NCBI RefSeq assembly: GCF_004010195.1
Contig: NC_057754.1
Location: 11,935,609-11,999,608, forward strand
Origin: Chiloscyllium plagiosum
Taxonomy: Eukaryota
DNA length: 64,000 nucleotides
Direction of reading: 5' to 3'
The notes beneath the pieces were generated by a model. The model was given only the letters and a program-made list of their open reading frames with translations. It was not told the origin of the DNA and did not search any database. The position numbers and the translations under genes were made by a program. Shown here one piece after another: positions 1-63,506 of the stretch (position 1 is the first letter of the stretch; each line of letters opens with the position of its first letter).

Positions 1-843
1 CTGTGTTTTTAGTTTCCTGTACATTCTGCAGAGACTGGAAACCATTGTTGATAAATGGAAGATAGTAAACCTTATCTAAGCATCGTCGATGAATGGAATG
101 GATCTAAGCATCCACAAAGGGAAAAAGAGATAGTGTGGCGAACTGTGGATCAATTAACTTAACATCTGTAGGGAAACTGTTGGTATCTATTATATAGGAT
201 GTGGTATTGGATATTTAAAAATTAACAGCAGCATTGGTGAGAATAAGTATGAATTTCTGAAAGGAAAATCATACCTTGATTAAATTCAGAATTGTTTGAA
301 GGTTATGTGGAGGAATATATGTAAGTGGAAAGTTACATTTCGGTTCGCCTTCATTTCAGGGAATCAGACTATAGATGTCAGGACATGTTGAAGCAGTTTC
401 ACAGCGTGTTGGCGAGACTGTAGCTGGAATATTGTGTACAATTTTGGTGAGACTGTACCTGGAATATTATGTTAAAAATCATACCCCAGTCCAACACTGG
501 CATCTCCGAATCATGGAATATTGTGTACAGCTTTGATGACCCAATATGAGAAAGAACATACTGACCACAGAGGAAGTGCCATAAGCATTGTCCAGATTCA
601 TCCCTCAGATGGCGAGATTATCTGATGAGGAAACGCGGCCCGTGTTCTCTAGAGATTCAAAGAATGACAGGTGGGCCACAGTGAAATTTTGAAAATTCAC
701 TAAACATATAACAAGATGGGAATAAACAGGATGTTTCTCTGACTGTTTACCCTACATTTAAGACAAATAATTGCAGGATCTGGGGCAGGCCATTTAAGAC
801 AGCAATAAGGAGGAAATTCTTCACTTGAAGGGGACTGACTAAC
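1..843 (+). mobile_element. Decayed CR1-clade LINE, RT and 3' region
   Basis: Degenerate CR1 ORF2-like sequence (tggaatattgtgtacaattttgg = LEYCVQFW motif; aggaaattcttcact 3' motif) with many stops and indels. Confidence 0.75.
470..513. mobile_element. Very short PLE-type terminal fragment inserted in CR1
   Basis: ttaaaaatcataccccagtccaacactggcatctccgaatca resembles the reverse complement of 1928-1975; flanked by tggaatattatgt / tggaatattgtgt. Confidence 0.55.
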
Positions 844-1671
844 GGTCTAGATTAGAGTGGTGCTGGAAAAGCATAGCTCTTCAGGCAACATCCGAGGAGT
901 AGTAAAATCGACACTTCGGGCAAAAGCCCTTCATCAGGAATACAGGCAGAGTGCTTGAAGGGCGGAGAGACAAATCAGAAGAGAGTGGGCGTGGGAAGAA
1001 GGCAGTATAGAGTGCAGTGGGAGAGGCACTCCCTGAGATTCTTGTCGAGAGAGGAGGAAAACTTCTTCAAGTCAGGCATCCTTGCTAGAGGATTCGCAGG
1101 TTTAAAATCAACTAGGTAAAAACACTGACTGCAGATGCTGGAAACCAGAGTCTAGATTAGAGTGGTGCTGGAAAAGCACAGCAGTTCAGGCAGCATTCGA
1201 GGAGCAGTAAACTCGACGCTTCGAGCAAAAGCCCTTCATCAGGAATCCAGGCAGAGTGCCTGAAGGGCAGAGAGACAAATCAGAGGAGGGTTGGGGTGGG
1301 GAGAAAGCGGCATAGAGTGCAGTGCTCTGGTTTCCAGCATCTGCCGTCATTGTTTTCACCTAGTTGATTTTTAACCTTACTGAGAATCCTCTTGCAAGGA
1401 CGCCTGCCTTGAAGAAGTTTTCCTCCTTTCTCTACAATAATCTCAGGGAGTCCCTCTCCCACTGCACTCTATGCTGCTTTCTCCCCACCCCCACCCTCCT
1501 CTGATTTGTCTCTCTGCCCTTCAGGCACTCTGCCTGTATTCCTGATGAAGGGCATTTGCCCGAAGCGTCGATATTACTGCTCCTAGGACGCTGGCTGAAC
1601 TGCTGTGCTTTTCCAGCACCACTCAAATCTCGACACTGGTTTCCAGCATCTGCAGGCATTGTTTTTAACCT
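844..1671. mobile_element. Non-autonomous PLE-derived / retrozyme-like multimer (~305-nt unit; about 1.6 copies on - strand, then about 1.1 inverted copies on + strand)
   Basis: Perfect 15-bp TSD aggggactgactaac at 829-843 and 1672-1686; unit starts repeat at 845 and 1150; 1325-1671 is the reverse complement; each copy has an HHR-like core. Confidence 0.85.
1538..1573 (+). ncRNA. Minimal type I hammerhead ribozyme motif (GAAG variant)
   Basis: CTGATGA-A-GGGC-ATTT-GCCC-GAAGC-GTC; antisense copies at about 906-940 and 1211-1246. Confidence 0.65.
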
Positions 1672-1927
1672 AGGGGACTGACTAACACAGGGCCATGGAA
1701 AACTGCTGGAAAGGCAAGGTTAGGGAGAATCCCCAGATATTCTACAAATGTGGAAAGCCGGGAAGAATAACTAGTGAATAGTTGGGACCTATTAGTGACT
1801 TGCCAAGTTGCATCCAAATCAACTTTAGTGGTCGGAAAAGGTGGTGGTAGAAGGCTGTTTGTGTGACTAAAGACCGGTGTCCAATGGTGTACCATAGGTA
1901 TCAGTGCTGTGTCCCTTATTAGTTGTG

Positions 1928-8940: not shown

Positions 8941-9004
8941 TGGATCTCACAGCTGATCCTGGGATTGGAGGCAGTTAAATATTTATTATAGTCTTGTTTG
9001 AAGT

Positions 9005-9054
<50 letters not shown>

Positions 9055-9195
9055 TTATTTCTTTAATAGAGCGGTTTTAGGGTGGATCTCACAGCTGATC
9101 CTGGGATTGGAGGCAGTTAAATATTTATTATATATAATTATATATATATAATTTTTTTTATTTATTTATTTCTTTAATAGAGCGGTTTTAGGGTG
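8941..9195. repeat. Tandem duplication containing (TA)n microsatellites
   Basis: tggatctcacagctgatcctgggattggaggcagttaaatatttattata at 8941 and 9083; each followed by a TA run and tttatttctttaatagagcggttttagggtgg. Confidence 0.9.
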
Positions 9196-9789: not shown

Positions 9790-10965
9790 ATGTGAGGAGA
9801 GCACATCAGTTAAAAAGAATGACGAGAAAGTCAGAGCATACAGTAATTCTCACGCACTAAATTGCATTTATTTCAACGTATGGGGTCTTACAGGGAAGGC
9901 TGATGAACTAAGGGCATGTTTTAGAACATGGGATTGGGACATCACATTTACTACAGAATGTTGTTTGAGAGATGTTCAGGTTGAGAGTGTAGTGCAGGAA
10001 AAGCACAGCAGGTCAGGCAGCACCTGAGGAGCAGGAAACTCGGTGTTTCAAGCAAAAACCCTCATCAGGAATGGGCTGATGAAGGGCTTTTGCCCGAAAC
10101 ATCGATTTTTCCTGATCTTCTGCTGCTGCCTTACTTGCTGTGCTTTTTCCAGCACCACACTCTCGACTCTAATCTCCAGTATCTGCAGCACTTGCTTTTG
10201 CTTGAGAGATGTTCAAGACTGGAAGTTCAACGTTTGTGATTACCACAGTGTTAAAGATTTGGATAGTTGTTTAGTTTGTCAAATGTGTTCAAGAAAATTT
10301 TCTTCATCGATATGTGGATGATCCTAGTAGAGAAGGAGCAAAACCAGACCTTCTTTTTGCTTTGTTTAGGACAAGTGACTGAAATAAATATGGGGGAATT
10401 CTTTTGGTCTTGCAAACATAACATTATTCGTTTCAAAATGGCTATGGAAAAGAATACACCTTCAATTAATATTATCTTTTTAATTGGAGAACCATAAAGT
10501 TTAATGGCACGGGACAAGGATGAACCAAGTTTGATGGGACTAGACTGTTAGCAGGTAAAACTATATCTGACAAGTGGGAAGCGTTCAACAGTGTGACGGC
10601 GAGAGTTGAGAGGCATTATCTTCCTGTCAGAGTGAAGGGTAACAGTTTAAAATTAAGGAACAATGGATGACTAAAGTTATTGACGTTGTAGTCAAGAATA
10701 AAAGAGGGTCTTACTTTAGATATAGACAACTTTATTCAATTGAATCGCTTAATCAATACAAAGAGCGTTGGGAATTATTTCGAGATAAATCAGGAAAGCA
10801 AAAAGGAGATCTGAGATAGCATGGGCAGATAAGGTTAAGGATAATCCAAAGATAGTGTCCAACTATATTATCAGAAAGAGGGTAACCATGGAGAGGATGA
10901 GGCCTCTTCATGATCATGAAGGATATTGATGTGTTGAACCCAGAAGATGGGGAATAAAATCGTCC
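9790..10965 (+). mobile_element. Decayed CR1 LINE, endonuclease and linker region
   Basis: tgcatttatttcaacg...aaggctgatgaactaagggcatg = CIYFN...KADELRA motif. Confidence 0.7.
9979..10201. mobile_element. Mini PLE: inverted pseudo-LTR pair with HHR
   Basis: Perfect 14-bp TSD ttgagagatgttca at 9965-9978 and 10202-10215; CTGATGA-A-GGGC-TTTT-GCCC-GAAAC-ATC at 10076-10103. Confidence 0.85.
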
Positions 10966-14355: not shown

Positions 14356-16515
14356 TTTTAATGGTATTAGGCAAGAACTTTCGAAAGCTGATTGGAGGTA
14401 GATGATTGCAGGCAAAGGGACGGCTGGAAAATGGGAAGCCTTCAGAAATGAGATAACACGCATCCAGAGAAAGTAAATTCCAGTCAGGGTGAAAAGGAAG
14501 GCTGATAGGTATAGGGAATGCTGGATGACGAAAGAAATTGAGAGTTTGGTTAAGAAAAAGAAGGAAGCAGATGTCAGGTATAGACAGGATAGATCGAGTG
14601 AATCCTTTGAGGAGTATAAAGGAAGTGGGAGTATACTTAACAGGGAAATCAGGAGGGCAAAAATGGGACATGAGATAGCTTTGGCAAATATAATTAAGGA
14701 GAATCCAAAGGGTTTTTACAAATATATTAAGGACAAAGGGTAACTAGGGAGAGAATAGGACCCCTCAAAGATCAGCAAGGCGGCCTTTGTGTGGAGCCAC
14801 AGGAAATGGGGAAGATGCTAAATGAATATTTTGCAACAGTATTTACTGTGGAAAAGGATATGGAAGATATAGACTGTAGGGAAATAGATGGTGACATCTT
14901 GCAAACTGTCCAGATATACAGAGGAGGAAGTGCTGGATGTCTTGAAATGGTTAAAGGTAGATACATCCCCAGGACCTGATCAGGTGTACCCTAGAACGCG
15001 GTGGGAAGCTGGAAAAGTGATTGCTGGGCCTCGTGCTGAGATATTTATATCATCAATAGTCACAGGTGAGGTGCCGGAAGACTGGAGGTTGGCAAACGTG
15101 GTGCCATTGTTTAAGAAAGGTGGTAAGGACAAGCCAGGGAACTATAGACCGGTGAGCCTGACCTCAGTGGTGGGCAAGTTGTTGGAGGGAATCCTGAGGG
15201 ACAGGATGTACATGTATTTGGAAAGGCAAGGACTGATTCGGGATAGTCAACATGGCTTTGTGCATGGGAAATCATGTCTCACAAACTTGATTGAGTTTTT
15301 TGAGGAAATAACAAAGAAGATTGATGAGGGCAGAGCAGTAAATGTGAACTATATAGACTTCAGTAAGGCGTTCGACAAGGTTCCCCATGGGAGACTGATT
15401 AGCAAGGTTAGATCTCAATGAATAGAGGGAGAACTAGCCATTTGCATACAGAACTGGCTCAAAGGTAGAAGACGGAGGGTGGTGGTGGTGAAGGGTTGTT
15501 TTTCAGACTGGAGGCCTGTGACCAGTGGAGTGCCACAAGGATCGGTGCTGGGTCCTCTACTTTTTGTCATTTACATAAATGATTTGGATGAGAGCATAAG
15601 AGGTACAGTTAGTAAGTTTGCAGATGACACTAAAATTGGAAGAGGGTTACCTCTGATTTCAACAGGATCTGGACCAGATGGGTCAATGGGCTGAGAAGTG
15701 GCAGATGGAGTTTAATTCAGAGTGCTGCATTTTGGGAAAGCAAATCTTAGCAGGACTTATACACTTTATGGTAAGGCCCTATGTAGTGTTGCTGAACAAA
15801 GAGACTTTGGAGTGCAGGTACATAGCTCCTTGAAAGTGGAGTCGCAGGTAGATATGCTAGTGAAGAAGGCGTTCGGTATACTTTCCTTTATTTGTCAGCG
15901 TATTGAGTACAGGAGTTGGGAGGTTATGTTGTGGCTGTACAGGACATTGGTTAGGCCACTGTTGGAATATTGCGTGCAATTCTGGTCTTGTTCGTATCGG
16001 AAAGATGTTGTGAAACTTGAAAGGGTTCAGAAAAGATTGACAAGGATATTGCAAGGATTGAAGGATTTGATCAATTGGGAGTGTCTGAACAGGCTGGGTC
16101 TGTCTTTATTGGAGCGTCGGAGGCTGAGGGGAGACCTTATAGAGGTTTACAAAATTATGAGGAGCATGGATAGGATAAATAGAGAAAGTATTTTCCCTGA
16201 GGTCGGGGTGTCCAGAACTAAAGGGCATAGGTTTAGGTTGAGAGGGGAAAGATATAAAAGGGACATAAGGGGCAACCTTTTCACGCAGAGGATGGTATCT
16301 GTATGGAATGAGCTGCCAGAGGATGTGATGGAGGCTGGTACAATTGCAACATTTAAGAGACATTTGGATGGGTATATTAATAGGAAGGGTTTGGATGGAT
16401 ATGGTCCAGGTGCTGGCAGGTGGGACTAGATTGGGTTGGGATATCTGGTCAACATGGACAGGTTGGATCGAAGGCTCCGTTTCCATGCTGTACATCTCTA
16501 TGACTCTATGAGTCT
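14356..16515 (+). mobile_element. 5'-truncated, fairly young CR1 LINE inserted in the Gypsy integrase
   Basis: ORFs 14888-15421, 15479-15694, 15722-16429 with RT motifs ([27 protein letters not shown]); tail tctctatgactctatgagtcta. Confidence 0.95.
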
Positions 16516-25347: not shown

Positions 25348-26287
25348 ACCTGACTGCATATTATTTAGCACCATTTGAGCACCATCTCAGTCACACAAAC
25401 AATTCCTGTCCGGACAATGTGGAGAAAAACAGGTACTTCTCTGCTGTAGAACATGAGGAACATGGAACACATTTCGTTTCTGCTGGAATTTATTAACTTC
25501 ATCGGAAGGAAGACACAATGGGCACCATTCAATCCTCAATTAAGAAACAGTTAAACTCCTTGGCACAAATCCACAGTAAGCTGCAATTCAAACAAAAACT
25601 TCTAGTTGAGACTTTGGCACACGATGAAGCACAGCAAAAACCAGGCACTTCCTTCACTTTTGAACTTGCTGTTGTTTCAGTAGTTTGGATTTCACATCAA
25701 ATCTCTTCCCACACCTTCTCTCCCCAGAGTGAGATGGCGGGTGCACAGTGACTCAAATTAACCACTTGAATCCAGACCCATGTTGAGAGCAACTAACGGT
25801 TTCTCTTAATGTCAACGTTGATGGGTCAACAGATCCTCCGAGATTTTCAGGCGTTTCCCACGTTCAGGGCATTTAAAAAATCCTTCCTATTTGTGGACTT
25901 GCTGTTGTTCAAACAATGTGGTGGATCAAGTGAATTGTATCCCACACTCGAAACAGACGAATGGCCTCTACCTCGTCTGACTGTATTTCTGTTCTGACAA
26001 GGCAGATTATCTGTTGAATCCCTGTCGACTCGTATCAAGACACAGTTTCTCCACACTGTGAATGATGCTTTTCTCTTCCATGTTCAAAAGCGAATCATAT
26101 TCAGACAACAATCAATTGGACAACATCATCAGATGCTGAAATGATATTTGGTTTTAAGCTTTTCACTGTAAATCTTCTTTTTCAAATGCCCGGGAAATGT
26201 ATTCATAAAGGAAAAACAGAAGCACTTTGTAGTCCAGAAGAAAAAGACAATAAGATGCAAGAGCAGAAGTCGGCAATTCAACCTATA

Positions 26288-27155
26288 TAGGAGAAAGTGA
26301 GGACTGCAGGTGCTGGAGGTCAGAGCTGTGTGACTGCGAAGTCAGGTCCTGGATTCAAGTAGTTAATTTGACTCACTGTTCTCCCGCCTCCAACACACCC
26401 CATCCACCTGGACACCCCGTGCTGGCCTCTTACCTGCCCTCGATCTCTTCATAGCTAACTGCCGCCATGACATTAACTGCCTCAACCTCTCCACCCCTCT
26501 CACCCACTCCAACCTCTCACCCTCGGAATGTGCAGCACTCCACTCCCTCCGTTCCAACTCCAACCTCACAATCAAACCGGCAGACAAGGGAGGCACGGTA
26601 GTAGTTTGGCGCACTGACCTTTACACCACTGAGGCTAAACGCCAGCTCGCGGGCACCTCCTCCTACTGCTCCCTTTACTATGACCCTACCTCACAACACC
26701 AAACCATCATCTCCCAGACCATCCATAACCTCATCTCCTCAGAGGATATCCCATCCACCGCCTCAAACCTCATAGTCCCACAACCCCGCACCGCCCGTTT
26801 CTACCTCCTGCCCAAAACTCAGATTTTTCCAGTTTCCTCATTTCCCCTCCCTCCACCTTGTCTCAGTCCCAACCCTCGTACGCAGCACCACCTTCCTAAC
26901 CTGCAATCTTCTTCCTGACCTCTCCGCCCCCACCCCCACTGCGGCCTATCACCCTCACCTTATCACCCTCACCTTGACCTCCTTCCACCTAACGCATTTC
27001 CAACACCCATCCACCAAGTCCCTCCTCCCTAGCTTTTATCTTAGCCTGCCTGGCACACTTGCCTCATTCCTGAAGAAGGGCTCATGCCCGAAACGTCGAT
27101 TCTCCTGCTCCTTGGATGCTGCCTGACCTGCTGCGCTTTTCCAGCAACACATTTT
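26288..27155 (+). mobile_element. Internally deleted Penelope-like element with inverted 5' pseudo-LTR fragment
   Basis: Perfect 14-bp TSD caattcaacctata (26274-26287, 27156-27169); RT N-region ..LTIKPADKGGTVVVWRTDLY..RTARFYLLPK fused to the 3' pseudo-LTR. Confidence 0.9.
27066..27101 (+). ncRNA. Minimal hammerhead ribozyme motif, intact core
   Basis: attc-CTGAAGA-A-GGGC-TCAT-GCCC-GAAAC-GTC-gatt. Confidence 0.75.
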
Positions 27156-27299
27156 CAATTCAACCTATACAGTCTGCTCTCACTGTTCAGTGACGTTACA
27201 GCTGATCTGATAATCCACAGATTCAGTTTCCTGCAATGTCAGCTACCCTTCGAATCCCTTGCTGATTAAAATCTGTTTGTCACAGAGTTCAAATTAATT

Positions 27300-32109: not shown

Positions 32110-33196
32110 TAGAACATAGAACATAGAACATAGAACAATACAGCACAGAACAGGCCCTTCGGCCCACGATGTTGTGCCGAACATTTGTCCTAGCGAAAGC
32201 ACCCATCCATGTACCTATCCAATTGCTGCTTAAAGGTCACCAATGATTCTGACTCTGCCACTCCCACAGGCAGCGCATTCCATGCCCCCACCACTCTCTG
32301 GGTAAAGAACCCACCCCTGACATCTCCCCTATACCTTCCACCCTTCACCTTAAATTTATATCCCCTTGNNNNNNNNNNNNNNNNNNNNNNNNNNNNNNNN
32401 NNNNNNNNNNNNNNNNNNNNNNNNNNNNNNNNNNNNNNNNNNNNNNNNNNNNNNNNNNNNNNNNNNNNNNNNNNNNNNNNNNNNNNNNNNNNNNNNNNNN
32501 NNNNNNNNNNNNNNNNNNNNNNNNNNNNNNNNNNNNNNNNNNNNNNNNNNNNNNNNNNNNNNNNNNNNNNNNNNNNNNNNNNNNNNNNNNNNNNNNNNNN
32601 NNNNNNNNNNNNNNNNNNNNNNNNNNNNNNNNNNNNNNNNNNNNNNNNNNNNNNNNNNNNNNNNNNNNNNNNNNNNNNNNNNNNNNNNNNNNNNNNNNNN
32701 NNNNNNNNNNNNNNNNNNNNNNNNNNNNNNNNNNNNNNNNNNNNNNNNNNNNNNNNNNNNNNNNNNNNNNNNNNNNNNNNNNNNNNNNNNNNNNNNNNNN
32801 NNNNNNNNNNNNNNNNNNNNNNNNNNNNNNNNNNNNNNNNNNNNGGAACTCTACTTGTAACTGGGCTCCAGGCTGAATATTTACCATCTACCACCACTCT
32901 CTGACTTCGACTGGTTAGCCAGTTTTCTATCCAATTGGCCAAATTTCCCTCTATCCCATGCCTCCTGACTTTCCGCATAAGCCTACCATGGGGAACCTTC
33001 TCAAATGCCTTACTAAAATCCATGTACACTACATCCATTGCTCTTCCCTCATCCACATGCTTGGTCACCTCCTCAAAGAATTCAATCAGACTTGTAAGGC
33101 AAGACCTACCCTTCACAAATCCGTGCTGGCTGTCCCTAATCAAGCAGTGTCTTTCCAGATACTCATAAATCCTATCCCTCAGTACCCTTTCCATTA
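32110..33196 (-). mobile_element. Young 5'-truncated CR1 LINE spanning the first assembly gap
   Basis: Open RT frame ([35 protein letters not shown]); (TTCTATG)n tail at 32110-32137. Confidence 0.93.
32369..32844. other. Assembly gap (476 N)
   Basis: Run of N. Confidence 1.
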
Positions 33197-33280: not shown

Positions 33281-34148
33281 GAGGAGAAAGTGAGAACTGC
33301 TGATGCTGGATTTCGAAGTCAAGTGTGCGCCATCACATAGCAAAATTGAGACTGGTGCAAGCTTCCCCACTCAAAAACTGTATCACTGCCAAGCACCAAC
33401 CTTCCCACTCCTAACAGCACCTTCCCCTGCTACCGCAGGAATTAGGAATCCTGCGCCCATTCCTCCCAATCACCTCCGTCCAAGGCCCAAAAGAAGCCTT
33501 CTACATTCATCAGAAATTTACCCGCATTTCCACAAATGTGCTTCACTGTAGTCGTTGCTCCCAATACGGTCTCCTCTACATTAGGGAGGCAGGCCAACTG
33601 CGTACAGAACGCTTCAGAGAGCATCTGTGAGACGTCCACACCAACCAACCGCATCACCATGTGGCCGACCAATTAAACAACTCGCTCCCACTCGGCCAAG
33701 GACATGAAGGTTCTGTGCTTCCCTCATTGCCAAGTCCTAACCACCAAACGCCTGTCGGGAGAACGCCTCATCTTCCACTTTAGGTCCATCCAACCTCACG
33801 GGATTAATGTGAATTGCAACAATTTCCTGATTACCCCTCCACTCCCCATCTTATCCCAAATCCAAACTTCGAACTCGGCAACTCCCTCATGACCTGGCCT
33901 ACACTGTCGAGCTTCCTTCTCACCTATCCACTCCACCATCCTCTCTGACCTGTCCCATCATCCCCACCTTCATCTCCGTATTGCAATCTCAGCTCCCATG
34001 CCCCCGAACCAGCCCCTTTTGAAATATCTTACCACTGTCTTGGCTCACCAGACTCATTCCTGGTGAAGGGGTTTTGCTCAAAACGTCACTTCTCCTGCTC
34101 CTCGGATTCTGCCTGATCTGATGTACTTTGGCAGCACCACACTCGACA
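33281..34148 (+). mobile_element. Penelope-like element 3' part (GIY-YIG) with inverted 5' tip and decayed HHR
   Basis: FTRISTNVLHCSRCSQYGLLYI..RFREHL..ERLIFHFRSIQPHGINV; cctggtgaaggggttttgctcaaaacgtc at about 34059; imperfect flanks caactatttaa / caatgatttaa. Confidence 0.85.
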
Positions 34149-34487
34149 ACAATGATTTAACTCAATAACCTTTGATTTCAGCCCTATGCACACCAAAGAG
34201 AGATTAACAAATAGTGAAGCGATAACTTAAACGAAAACAAGACAAACTGATCCAAGGATAACGGTCTGAGGATCTCTGCGGCTTCAATCACAGCCCGTAA
34301 AACCAATTTTTTTGGTGCTAGAGTTGTGCTCAGACCAGTCATGAAAAATACAAACCTGTATATAGCTCCGTACTCGGCCCTCTCCTTCAACCTTCAATCT
34401 CCACCTTTGACGTGAGGGACCAACATTTCTGTCCGGAGATAACTTGTGGTGCGCATGTTCATAATCTACATTGTTTTCCTTCTCCAG

Positions 34488-41034: not shown

Positions 41035-41240
41035 ATGGATAATTTGTTGCTGGAAAAGTACAGCAGGTTAGGCAGCATCAAAGAAGCAGGAGAATGGACG
41101 TTTCTGAGATGAGTACTTCATCAGGCATTCGGCCAAAACGTCGATTCGCCTGCTCCTTGGATGCTGCCTGACCTGCTGTGTTTTACAGCACCACACTCAC
41201 GACTCTGACCTCCAATATCTACAGTCCTCACTGTCTCCTC
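41035..41240. mobile_element. Mini PLE inverted pseudo-LTR pair with decayed HHRs
   Basis: tgttgctggaaaagtacagcagg..catcagg / aaaacgtcgattc..ctcactgtctcct. Confidence 0.75.
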
Positions 41241-42406: not shown

Positions 42407-42906
42407 NNNNNNNNNNNNNNNNNNNNNNNNNNNNNNNNNNNNNNNNNNNNNNNNNNNNNNNNNNNNNNNNNNNNNNNNNNNNNNNNNNNNNNNNNNNNNN
42501 NNNNNNNNNNNNNNNNNNNNNNNNNNNNNNNNNNNNNNNNNNNNNNNNNNNNNNNNNNNNNNNNNNNNNNNNNNNNNNNNNNNNNNNNNNNNNNNNNNNN
42601 NNNNNNNNNNNNNNNNNNNNNNNNNNNNNNNNNNNNNNNNNNNNNNNNNNNNNNNNNNNNNNNNNNNNNNNNNNNNNNNNNNNNNNNNNNNNNNNNNNNN
42701 NNNNNNNNNNNNNNNNNNNNNNNNNNNNNNNNNNNNNNNNNNNNNNNNNNNNNNNNNNNNNNNNNNNNNNNNNNNNNNNNNNNNNNNNNNNNNNNNNNNN
42801 NNNNNNNNNNNNNNNNNNNNNNNNNNNNNNNNNNNNNNNNNNNNNNNNNNNNNNNNNNNNNNNNNNNNNNNNNNNNNNNNNNNNNNNNNNNNNNNNNNNN
42901 NNNNNN
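42407..42906. other. Assembly gap (500 N)
   Basis: Run of N. Confidence 1.
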
Positions 42907-56399: not shown

Positions 56400-57131
56400 C
56401 CCTTGGGAGGGGGGATCACAAAGTGGAAGATGAGGGATTCTTCCTCCAGGTCACAAAGAAACTTTGGGGCATTCTTCCTCCAGGCGTCGGGTGCTAAAGT
56501 TTGGCGATGGAGCAGGCCCAGGACATGCATGTCATTGGTGGAGTGTAGTGCAAGTAAACGTGGCAGTGAAGATTGCCTGATCTTCCGACTTGGTGCCTGC
56601 AGCAAGATCATTTCTTCTTCTGCCTTCGAGCCTGTTGCAGGAACGCCTCATCTTCTTCCTTGGAGTCTCGAAGAACACCTCATTTTCCTCCTTGGGGCCT
56701 GGAGGAAGAACGCCTGATTTTCTGCATTGGGACCCTCAAAATCCGACGGGATCAATGTGGACTTCACATTATTTCATTCTTTCAGCCCGCTGCACTTTAT
56801 CCCAGATCCATCCTTCCAACTTAACACCACCGCCTTGAACTGTCCAACTTGTCAATCTTCCTTCCCACATATCCGCTCCACGTTCCTCTCTGACCTATCA
56901 ATTTCACCCATAACTTCATCTACCTATCGCATTCCCAGCGACCTTCTCCCCAGGTACACACCCGATCCCATTCATATCTCAACCCCCTTGGAATACCTGC
57001 TCATTCTTGATGAAAAGCTTATGCTCAAAACGTCTACTCTCCTCTCTTCAGTTGCTGTCTGACCAGCTTGTTTTTTCAAGTCGACACTATTTGAATCTGA
57101 TCTCCAGCGTCTCCAAGTCCTCACTTTCTCC
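56400..57131. mobile_element. Rearranged PLE 3' end (inverted, with stuttered EERLIF units)
   Basis: - strand LEEESLIFH (56400-56575); + strand QERLIFFLG, EEHLIFLLG, EEERLIFCIG, then pseudo-LTR with decayed HHR at about 57005. Confidence 0.75.
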
Positions 57132-59335: not shown

Positions 59336-59545
59336 AGAGATAGTAAAGACTGTAGATACTGGAAGTCGGATTCGAGAAAATGTGAATCCCGAAAGGGACA
59401 GCATGTCATGTAGCAGTGTATGAGCAGGAAAATTGACGTTTTGGGTCAGGAACTTTCATCAGGACTCTGCACTGACCTGAAGTGTTGATTTCCTGCTCCT
59501 CTGATGATGTTTGACTGACTATGTCTTTCCAGTTCCACATTTTAT
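59335..59545. mobile_element. Mini PLE inverted pair with decayed HHR
   Basis: - strand cctgatgaaagttcctgacccaaaacgtcaat at about 59432-59463. Confidence 0.65.
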
Positions 59546-63409: not shown

Positions 63410-63506
63410 GAGAGTCGAGAGTGTGATGATGGAAAAGCACACAGGTAAGGCAGCATCTGAGGAGAAGGAAAGTCGACATTTCGGGCAAAAGCCCTTCATG
63501 AGGAAC
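63410..63506 (-). mobile_element. PLE pseudo-LTR scrap with decayed HHR
   Basis: - strand cctcatgaagggcttttgcccgaaatgtcgac. Confidence 0.65.

Follow-up and report, generated by a model that had tools for sequence, protein, structure and literature searches.

The insertion at positions 844-1671 of the window, a stretch of 64,000 nt from Chiloscyllium plagiosum, raised the question of how a short hammerhead-bearing unit came to lie in direct and inverted copies at one site. An initial annotation had proposed that a Penelope-like element (PLE) deletion derivative was copied more than once around a multimeric or circular RNA, and that it possibly represented a shark retrozyme family. The anatomy of the insertion, its coding remnant, its hammerheads, and its relatives in contig collections were analyzed in order to choose between these possibilities.

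A repeat scan of the window placed the insertion between two copies of a 15-bp target-site duplication (TSD), AGGGGACTGACTAAC, which matched at 15/15 positions (829-843 and 1672-1686). This score of 15 exceeded that of all 56 random edge pairs (best 12), a background whose slack was narrower than that of the test. The scan also returned a direct repeat of 845-1019 and 1150-1324 (175 nt, 89% identity, spacing 305), two inverted pairings, 845-1099 with 1380-1634 (255 nt, 89%) and 1117-1324 with 1460-1667 (208 nt, 92%), and a further inverted arm of 53 nt. The left arm amounted to 480/305 = 1.57 head-to-tail units and the inverted arm to 1.13 units. A tail repeat of 1327-1363 and 1636-1673 had about 89% identity, and the final 2 nt of the right tail overlapped the TSD. 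Read in the hammerhead sense, the unit consists of segment A (3′ region, hammerhead, and downstream pseudo-LTR, pLTR; 169-175 nt), segment T (the tail, 38 nt), and segment O (leader and ORF start). On the plus strand the order is TSD, rc(A), rc(O), rc(T), rc(A), T, O, A, T, TSD (Table 1), with a tail at the right insertion edge and none at the left. Both arms are substrings of a single head-to-tail template of about 520 nt with two junction crossings.

Table 1. Anatomy of the insertion and its target site (window coordinates)
Feature	Position	Strand	Basis or remark
Left TSD copy, 15 bp	829..843	+	repeat scan
Copy 1, segment A: PLE 3′ region, minimal hammerhead, downstream pLTR; tail-less at left insertion edge (844 is one extra base)	845..1013	-	
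Hammerhead core 1, CUGAUGA-A-GGGC-UUUU-GCCC-GAAG; G15.1 and U15.2, self-pairing helix III lost	914..937	-	
Copy 1, segment O: leader and putative PLE ORF codons 1-22, ATG 1079-1077; deletion junction ~1013	1013..1111	-	
Internal tail copy in left arm, 38 nt	1112..1149	-	
Copy 2, segment A	1150..1318	-	
Hammerhead core 2, helix II GGGC/GCUC, G15.1	1219..1242	-	
Six ORF-side letters (His-Cys codons) ending copy 2; apparent second deletion-junction crossing	1319..1324	-	listed family pieces stop at 1318
Inversion point	1324/1325		no microhomology
Tail copy opening inverted arm	1325..1363	+	
Copy 3, segment O; start codon decayed to ACG at 1400-1402 (family has T at 1401); junction 1466	1364..1466	+	
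Copy 3, segment A	1466..1634	+	
Hammerhead core 3, loop AUUU, G15.1	1542..1565	+	
Terminal tail, right end only; last 2 nt overlap TSD	1635..1673	+	
Right TSD copy	1672..1686	+	repeat scan

The perfect TSD, the roughly 1.6 head-to-tail copies starting at 845 and 1150, and the roughly 1.1 inverted, terminally redundant copies were all borne out as initially annotated, and the TSD supports the accompanying claim that 844-1671 is a single insertion event. Nested insertion was ruled out, since no inner TSD was found among the exact 15-mer pairs of the insertion. The array was absent from the nine Tandem Repeats Finder rows, which were obtained with parameters slightly different from those of the 2026 retrozyme preprint (bioRxiv 10.64898/2026.07.22.740005), and flank searches found no single older repeat spanning the insertion site. 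The right flank at 1840-1914 matched window positions 15481-15555 and is probably old LINE sequence; an ORF with a reverse transcriptase (RT) match (PF00078, E 3e-12) lies at 14888-15421. Assembly gaps (runs of N) are located far from the insertion, at 32369-32844 and 42407-42906.

No ORF of at least 110 aa lies within 844-1671, and the RT plus GIY-YIG ORF of an autonomous PLE is lacking. The initial description of a unit with no RT or endonuclease ORF was therefore correct in that neither is present, but coding remains do exist, apparently the first 22 codons of a PLE ORF. A profile of two 44-aa remnants matched two proteins among 1.84 billion, P0001 and P0002, the second of which was dropped as an unrelated repeat protein. 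Segment O corresponds to residues 1-22 of P0001, an uncharacterized Chiloscyllium punctatum protein (18/22 identical), and the match ends at the deletion junction. P0003 from Hemiscyllium ocellatum is 67% identical to P0001 over residues 1-170. Residues 390-462 of P0001 matched window positions 26380-26598 (E 1e-20), another frame of which reads IKPADKGG, and this fragment lies upstream of a sister hammerhead at 27070. According to PMC8557442, the DKG motif is diagnostic for PLE RTs. The chain from segment O through P0001 to the DKG-bearing fragment thus indicates, by a two-step link, that O is probably the start of a PLE ORF.

Pfam gave no match for P0001-P0003 or for both 44-aa remnants, a word-index protein search with the remnants returned nothing, the PDB searches returned nothing meaningful, and no full-length relative of P0001 was found. 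An Atlas search with residues 1-180 of P0003 produced only low-grade HEAT/CLASP-like leads. A 16-nt ORF-start pattern hit 119 loci, all of which were discarded as chance matches (longest alignment to the unit, 33 nt). Rather than host genes, the annotated shark proteins P0001 and P0003 (one of them named mucin-2-like) seem to represent PLE ORF starts with frameshifts. With its ORF-start side matching residues 1-22 of P0001, and P0001 linked to the DKG fragment, the proposed PLE deletion derivative is supported: the unit would be a PLE that lost nearly all of its ORF by deletion, leaving the tail and codons 1-22 fused to the 3′ region and hammerhead.

The three hammerhead cores (937-914 and 1242-1219 on the minus strand, 1542-1565 on the plus strand) all follow the pattern CTGATGA-A-GGGC-N4-GC(C/T)C-GAAG, whereas a window scan found related motifs reading GAAA at 10076, 27070, 10068, and 41124, in agreement with the initial annotation. 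Apart from G15.1, the minimal hammerhead layout is present in all three copies. A15.1, which the parent family retains, is replaced by G in 3/3 copies, and copy 1 additionally carries U15.2. Helix II is intact throughout; of the first 8 positions of helix I, 5 are paired in copy 1, 7 in copy 2, and 4 in copy 3. By calculation, GCGU can self-pair as a dimer helix III (-3.7 vs. -3.1 kcal/mol for ACGU), while the GUGU of copy 1 cannot. Folding of the monomer as a circle brought no added stability (z +0.24 vs. 60 shuffles), and the predicted read-through transcript is one long hairpin of about -560 kcal/mol. The Rfam search of the window gave no hammerhead match, its two matches being far under the gathering score, and the hammerhead pattern had 0 matches in the metagenome and viral contigs.

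Published data on such motifs bear on the competence of these ribozymes. In PMC3088659, A15.1 is treated as part of the core, and changes at 15.1 or 16.1 lose at least 10-fold activity and fail the core filter. Minimal motifs showed no monomer cleavage and low dimer cleavage in the experiments described in PMC4209133, and 8/9 Xenopus dimers remained uncleaved in the preprint. For the system described in PMC11167929, hammerhead cleavage occurred only with protein and was unneeded for insertion in vitro.

The parent family was traced by comparing segment 1150-1490 (341 bases, containing each segment once) at 80% likeness with contig runs X1, X9, and X12 from organisms A, B, and C, each of which held at most 0.37 of the words of 600-1950 and may represent relatives rather than the source species. 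The numbers of matched records were 32,676 (X1), 44,796 (X9), and 44,424 (X12); to judge from these sequence matches, the parent PLE family is very large. The comparison covered four of 24 listed runs; the fourth, the polyA single-cell RNA run X22 (about 6% read), gave 0 matching reads, which has no bearing either way. Of about 123,800 pieces, 24 were listed in detail, as were 15 of the 56 joints and 40 of the 92 variant rows. Among these, the ORF-side pieces end at 1466 (three pieces) or 1470, with 1-43 letters left over, and the 3′-side pieces end at 1318 (three pieces, from two runs), with 1-14 letters left over. These ends set the breakpoint at 1466 = 1318, immediately following the His-Cys codons.

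Among the 15 listed joints, those with the best support ran from A to T, which is normal pLTR-tail continuity; in others, an arm truncated at the hammerhead met a tail in inverted orientation, an inversion of the kind present in 844-1671. No O-to-A junction crossing occurred among the 24 pieces and 15 joints, and one locus with the deletion junction is present in the 64-kb window. The listed pieces included none from the orthologous locus, which in itself proves nothing. Depth just past the junction was 4.4, 6.1, and 11.2% of the ORF-start depth, values that are upper bounds, since short A-segment contigs can land there. In many family contigs the match breaks off at 1246, a point immediately upstream of the hammerhead core, with loose ends numbering 326, 326, and 74; sister subfamilies account for some of these and truncation for others.

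Of 175 aligned columns, 148 agree among the three copies and 27 differ, with 14 private differences in copy 1, 6 in copy 2, and 7 in copy 3, or about 5% per copy. Copy 1 has an excess of differences (14/27, p 0.04); copies 2 and 3 are 92% alike, and each is 88-89% like copy 1. The 27/175 differing columns rule out near-identity of the copies and indicate that the insertion is old; an assembly artefact or duplication was ruled out in the same way, as the copies differ by 8-12%. The insertion is thus old and decayed, and it is most likely inert.

At 1219, 1268, 1276, and 1281, all three copies read C, where another letter holds 95.6-99.5% of the summed depth in X1, X9, and X12. The family letter accounted for 98.2, 95.6, and 97.0% of the summed depth at 1219 (position 15.1) in the three runs, and for 96.4-99.5% at 1268, 1276, and 1281. 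These four rare letters point to descent of all copies from one source hammerhead region, in line with the single template proposed initially. Copies 2 and 3 also share a non-family letter at 1269/1515 where copy 1 keeps the family letter; CpG decay or conversion can explain it, and the copies do not form a perfect star. The depth of non-family letters at 1268/1276 was 119/110 (X1), 1078/503 (X9), and 40/70 (X12) against totals of 7,000-88,000, which puts the shared letters at no more than about 0.5-1.2% of the summed depth in the three organisms' contigs. Set against a depth of about 5-12 for single-locus contigs, these values suggest that the three organisms have tens of copies at most, although summed depth is no copy number. 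Any amplification of the unit looks small.

We consider it probable, though well short of certain, that the insertion arose from a PLE deletion derivative, with two cDNAs primed on either side of the tail from a deleted source template holding two junctions and then joined head to head. The proposed course is as follows. A very abundant shark-type PLE family gave rise to the 305-nt non-coding unit through a deletion joining ORF codon 22 to the last ~75 nt before the hammerhead. One source copy with four private changes would then have been transcribed and inserted in trans by the GIY-YIG endonuclease and RT of an autonomous PLE. Two staggered cuts 15 nt apart would each have primed cDNA on the same kind of template, the left arm (480 nt) starting just before the tail and the right arm (~349 nt) just after it. 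From the anatomy and PMC11167929, the two cDNAs would have been joined head to head, and later decay would account for about 5% per copy. PMC11167929 describes a PLE protein that cuts both strands and starts RT at two adjacent sites bounding the tail. Such cutting with two RT starts fits the left arm before the tail, the right arm after it, the TSD, and the head-to-head joint.

Twin priming alone does not explain the arm end points, as both arms stop at special points, one at the junction plus 6 nt and the other at the left arm's own priming point. Copy 2 carries 6 nt (1319-1324) beyond the deletion junction, past where the listed family A pieces stop, so the template probably held two junctions, as a tandem, a circle, or a re-entered monomer; this second crossing rests on the 6 nt and on the three listed contig pieces from two runs. 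The source could have been a small genomic tandem of the deleted unit or an RT passing more than once over one RNA, and the data fit both. The junction was seen at no other locus, and the pre-existing deleted source is accordingly a presumed one. Of the proposed copying more than once around a multimeric or circular RNA, the copying of more than one unit stands, although more weakly, on the six ORF-side letters, the one point in favor of the multimer idea; these letters do not single out a circle, and the tandem-plus-inverted arrangement is the usual layout of PLE insertions, not an indication of a circle.

Two further insertions served as controls within the window and, having the same insertion grammar, support this twin-primed deletion derivative. 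The first, at 26274-27172, is another internally deleted PLE of a sister subfamily, with a 17-nt TSD (1 mismatch), an inverted tail at the left end, an ORF piece with the DKG motif, a jump to the 3′ region, and a hammerhead with a CUGAAGA core at 27070. The second, at 9961-10215, consists of two PLE ends arranged head to head, each bearing a hammerhead; its TSD measures 18 nt (1 mismatch), and of its two arms only the right one has a tail.

Other repeats of the window were recorded as separate observations. The Atlas features of the DKG-motif ORF piece in 26274-27172 resemble DUF8422 clusters. A decayed head-to-head PLE-end pair without a clear TSD lies at 41045-41240, where a sub-threshold mir-1791 Rfam match arises because the region is a hairpin. 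A second hammerhead family (1926-2125, core 2040-2064) sits inside an inverted repeat, and its end matches a short insert near 467-513. The short insert at 426-539 is flanked by ~25-nt imperfect direct repeats, has 29 nt (inverted) in common with 1926-1954, and probably represents a PLE insertion the size of a tail. Additional decayed solo ends, related to the hammerhead region of the unit, were found at 34056-34150, 57003-57130, 59405-59545, and 63411-63505, and a direct duplication of ~130 nt at 8941-9182 (8941/9083, spacing ~142) surrounds an (AT)n tract.

A one-off accident is the alternative that fares best, and we regard it as unlikely. Here the RT, while making this very insertion, would have left the 3′ region and resumed at the ORF start, and the right arm would be a fold-back copy of the left; the junction would then be unique to this locus. 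It agrees with the lack of a junction-crossing piece or joint among those listed, with the right arm mirroring 845-1150 exactly in extent, and with the self-priming proposed for PLE inversions in PMC3846280; a 4-nt snap-back beside the inversion point, read from the sequence, could weakly have seeded the fold-back. However, the tail that ends the right arm is missing at the left edge and calls for one more priming or jump, the six ORF-side letters closing copy 2 demand a second jump, and the point 1324/1325 is without microhomology.

An amplified non-LTR retrozyme family, in which the 305-nt monomer self-cleaves, circularises, and is inserted as rolling-circle multimers by PLE enzymes, strikes us as distinctly improbable. 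Two tandem hammerheads do lie 305 nt apart, the unit length falls within the vertebrate retrozyme range (mean 363 bp in one sampled cartilaginous fish of the preprint), there are two junction crossings, and the copies have one hammerhead variant in common. The nonzero depth past the junction also counts in favor, but it may stem from short 3′-region contigs. Against a self-cleaving monomer stand G15.1 in all three cores, given the activity loss cited above for such changes, a hammerhead that is minimal rather than canonical, a type that cleaved weakly or not at all in vitro (PMC4209133, PMC11167929), the uncleaved Xenopus dimers, and the unremarkable circular fold; against an amplified family stand the scarcity of non-family letters at 1268/1276 (40-1,078 of 7,000-88,000 depth) and copies only 88-92% alike. 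The suggestion of a shark retrozyme family was accordingly not upheld, with rare letters scarce in three organisms' contigs, no junction-crossing contig among those listed, and a minimal PLE-type ribozyme broken at a core position.

Still less probable, in our estimate, is a history in which RT passed repeatedly over one unit-length RNA that already carried A-to-I edits when it was copied. This RNA would have been circular or a linear monomer that RT re-entered. A-to-G on the RNA strand accounts for 3/4 shared changes (from the 40 of 92 variant rows available), including the hammerhead-disabling A15.1G, against 0/27 private ones (Fisher p 0.0009, post hoc). The four shared letters are also accounted for by ordinary DNA mutation in a source copy or by an older subfamily state. 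Among the titles listed, literature searches surfaced no precedent for the return of edited templates to the genome as retroelement copies, a negative that is weak as evidence of absence. If the editing reading were true, the locus would offer direct genomic evidence for PLE rolling-circle copying with edits written into the genome. Finally, it seems very improbable that a simpler inverted insertion underwent local tandem duplication or gene conversion afterwards, expanding it in the first case and homogenising it in the second. Copies 2 and 3 do resemble each other more (92%) than they resemble copy 1 (88-89%), but the arms begin exactly at end points seen family-wide, one before the tail and one after it, an internal TSD is lacking, divergence is similar among all copies, and four rare letters occur in all three.

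The hammerheads share with the metazoan PLE minimal type I motifs of PMC4209133 the CUGAUGA box, one extra nucleotide, a G10.1-C11.1 helix II, and a palindromic 15.2-16.2 without a real helix III, and differ from those described there in the G for A15.1 in 3/3 copies and the weak helix I of copies 1 and 3. Opposite-strand hammerhead pairs 100-700 bp apart have already been reported in the same paper.

In PMC7229834, non-LTR retrozymes are linked to tandem repeats that contain canonical type I motifs and are expressed as circles; the preprint, which already places PLE-derived retrozymes in a cartilaginous fish, asks for two consecutive units with complete motifs, canonical or minimal. As in the retrozymes of these two sources, the locus has a short non-coding tandem unit with one type I hammerhead per unit, PLE ancestry, and a long TSD. 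In contrast to them, its core is minimal and mutated (G15.1 in 3/3 copies, U15.2 in copy 1, no Rfam hammerhead match), it has fewer than two full tandem units (1.57, with no Tandem Repeats Finder row), the ORF start is retained, and the contig pieces and joints listed gave no sign of amplification. The locus may have worked like a retrozyme precursor, but we do not class it as a retrozyme. Non-autonomous Chlamys PLE derivatives such as MRC1 (PMC8557442) are similar in being non-autonomous and pLTR-forming with head-to-tail insertions; as described there, they are active multi-copy algal families of another clade, whereas this is one decayed vertebrate locus.

A single decayed locus does not settle how PLE tandems form. 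It gives an example of a PLE shrinking to a retrozyme-sized unit that was apparently still inserted in trans, which fits the published idea of animal retrozymes as non-autonomous PLE derivatives. Should the unit turn out to be a dispersed family, or the shared A-to-G changes to reflect the editing of a single RNA that was copied repeatedly, loci of this kind would provide a sequence-only test of circular templates for PLE tandems.

The closest counterparts are endonuclease-bearing PLEs. PMC3846280 describes two direct pLTRs plus an inverted pLTR, with a tail at one end and a TSD, a pLTR that holds the first 12-22 codons of the ORF, one derivative with a microhomology deletion, and self-priming as a proposed alternative; PMC8557442 calls tandem and inverted structures typical and reports non-autonomous head-to-tail derivatives. 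At 844-1671 we found partial tandem pLTRs with an adjacent inverted 5′-truncated copy, a 38-nt tail at the right end only, a 15-bp TSD, a minimal hammerhead in the pLTR, and sequence apparently derived from a PLE ORF. With Pen2a_Av and the Pen2 derivative on scaffold 304 (PMC3846280; PMC8557442 Fig. 2), the locus shares direct pLTRs, an inverted copy, a one-sided tail of 30-40 nt, a TSD, a pLTR running into the first codons of the ORF, and an internal deletion derivative. It differs from the layouts described in these papers in three respects: only 22 codons of the ORF are left, the inverted arm contains an additional complete unit including the junction, and the direct arm seems to cross that junction twice. 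The 844-1671 insertion is a PLE deletion derivative in an already published layout.
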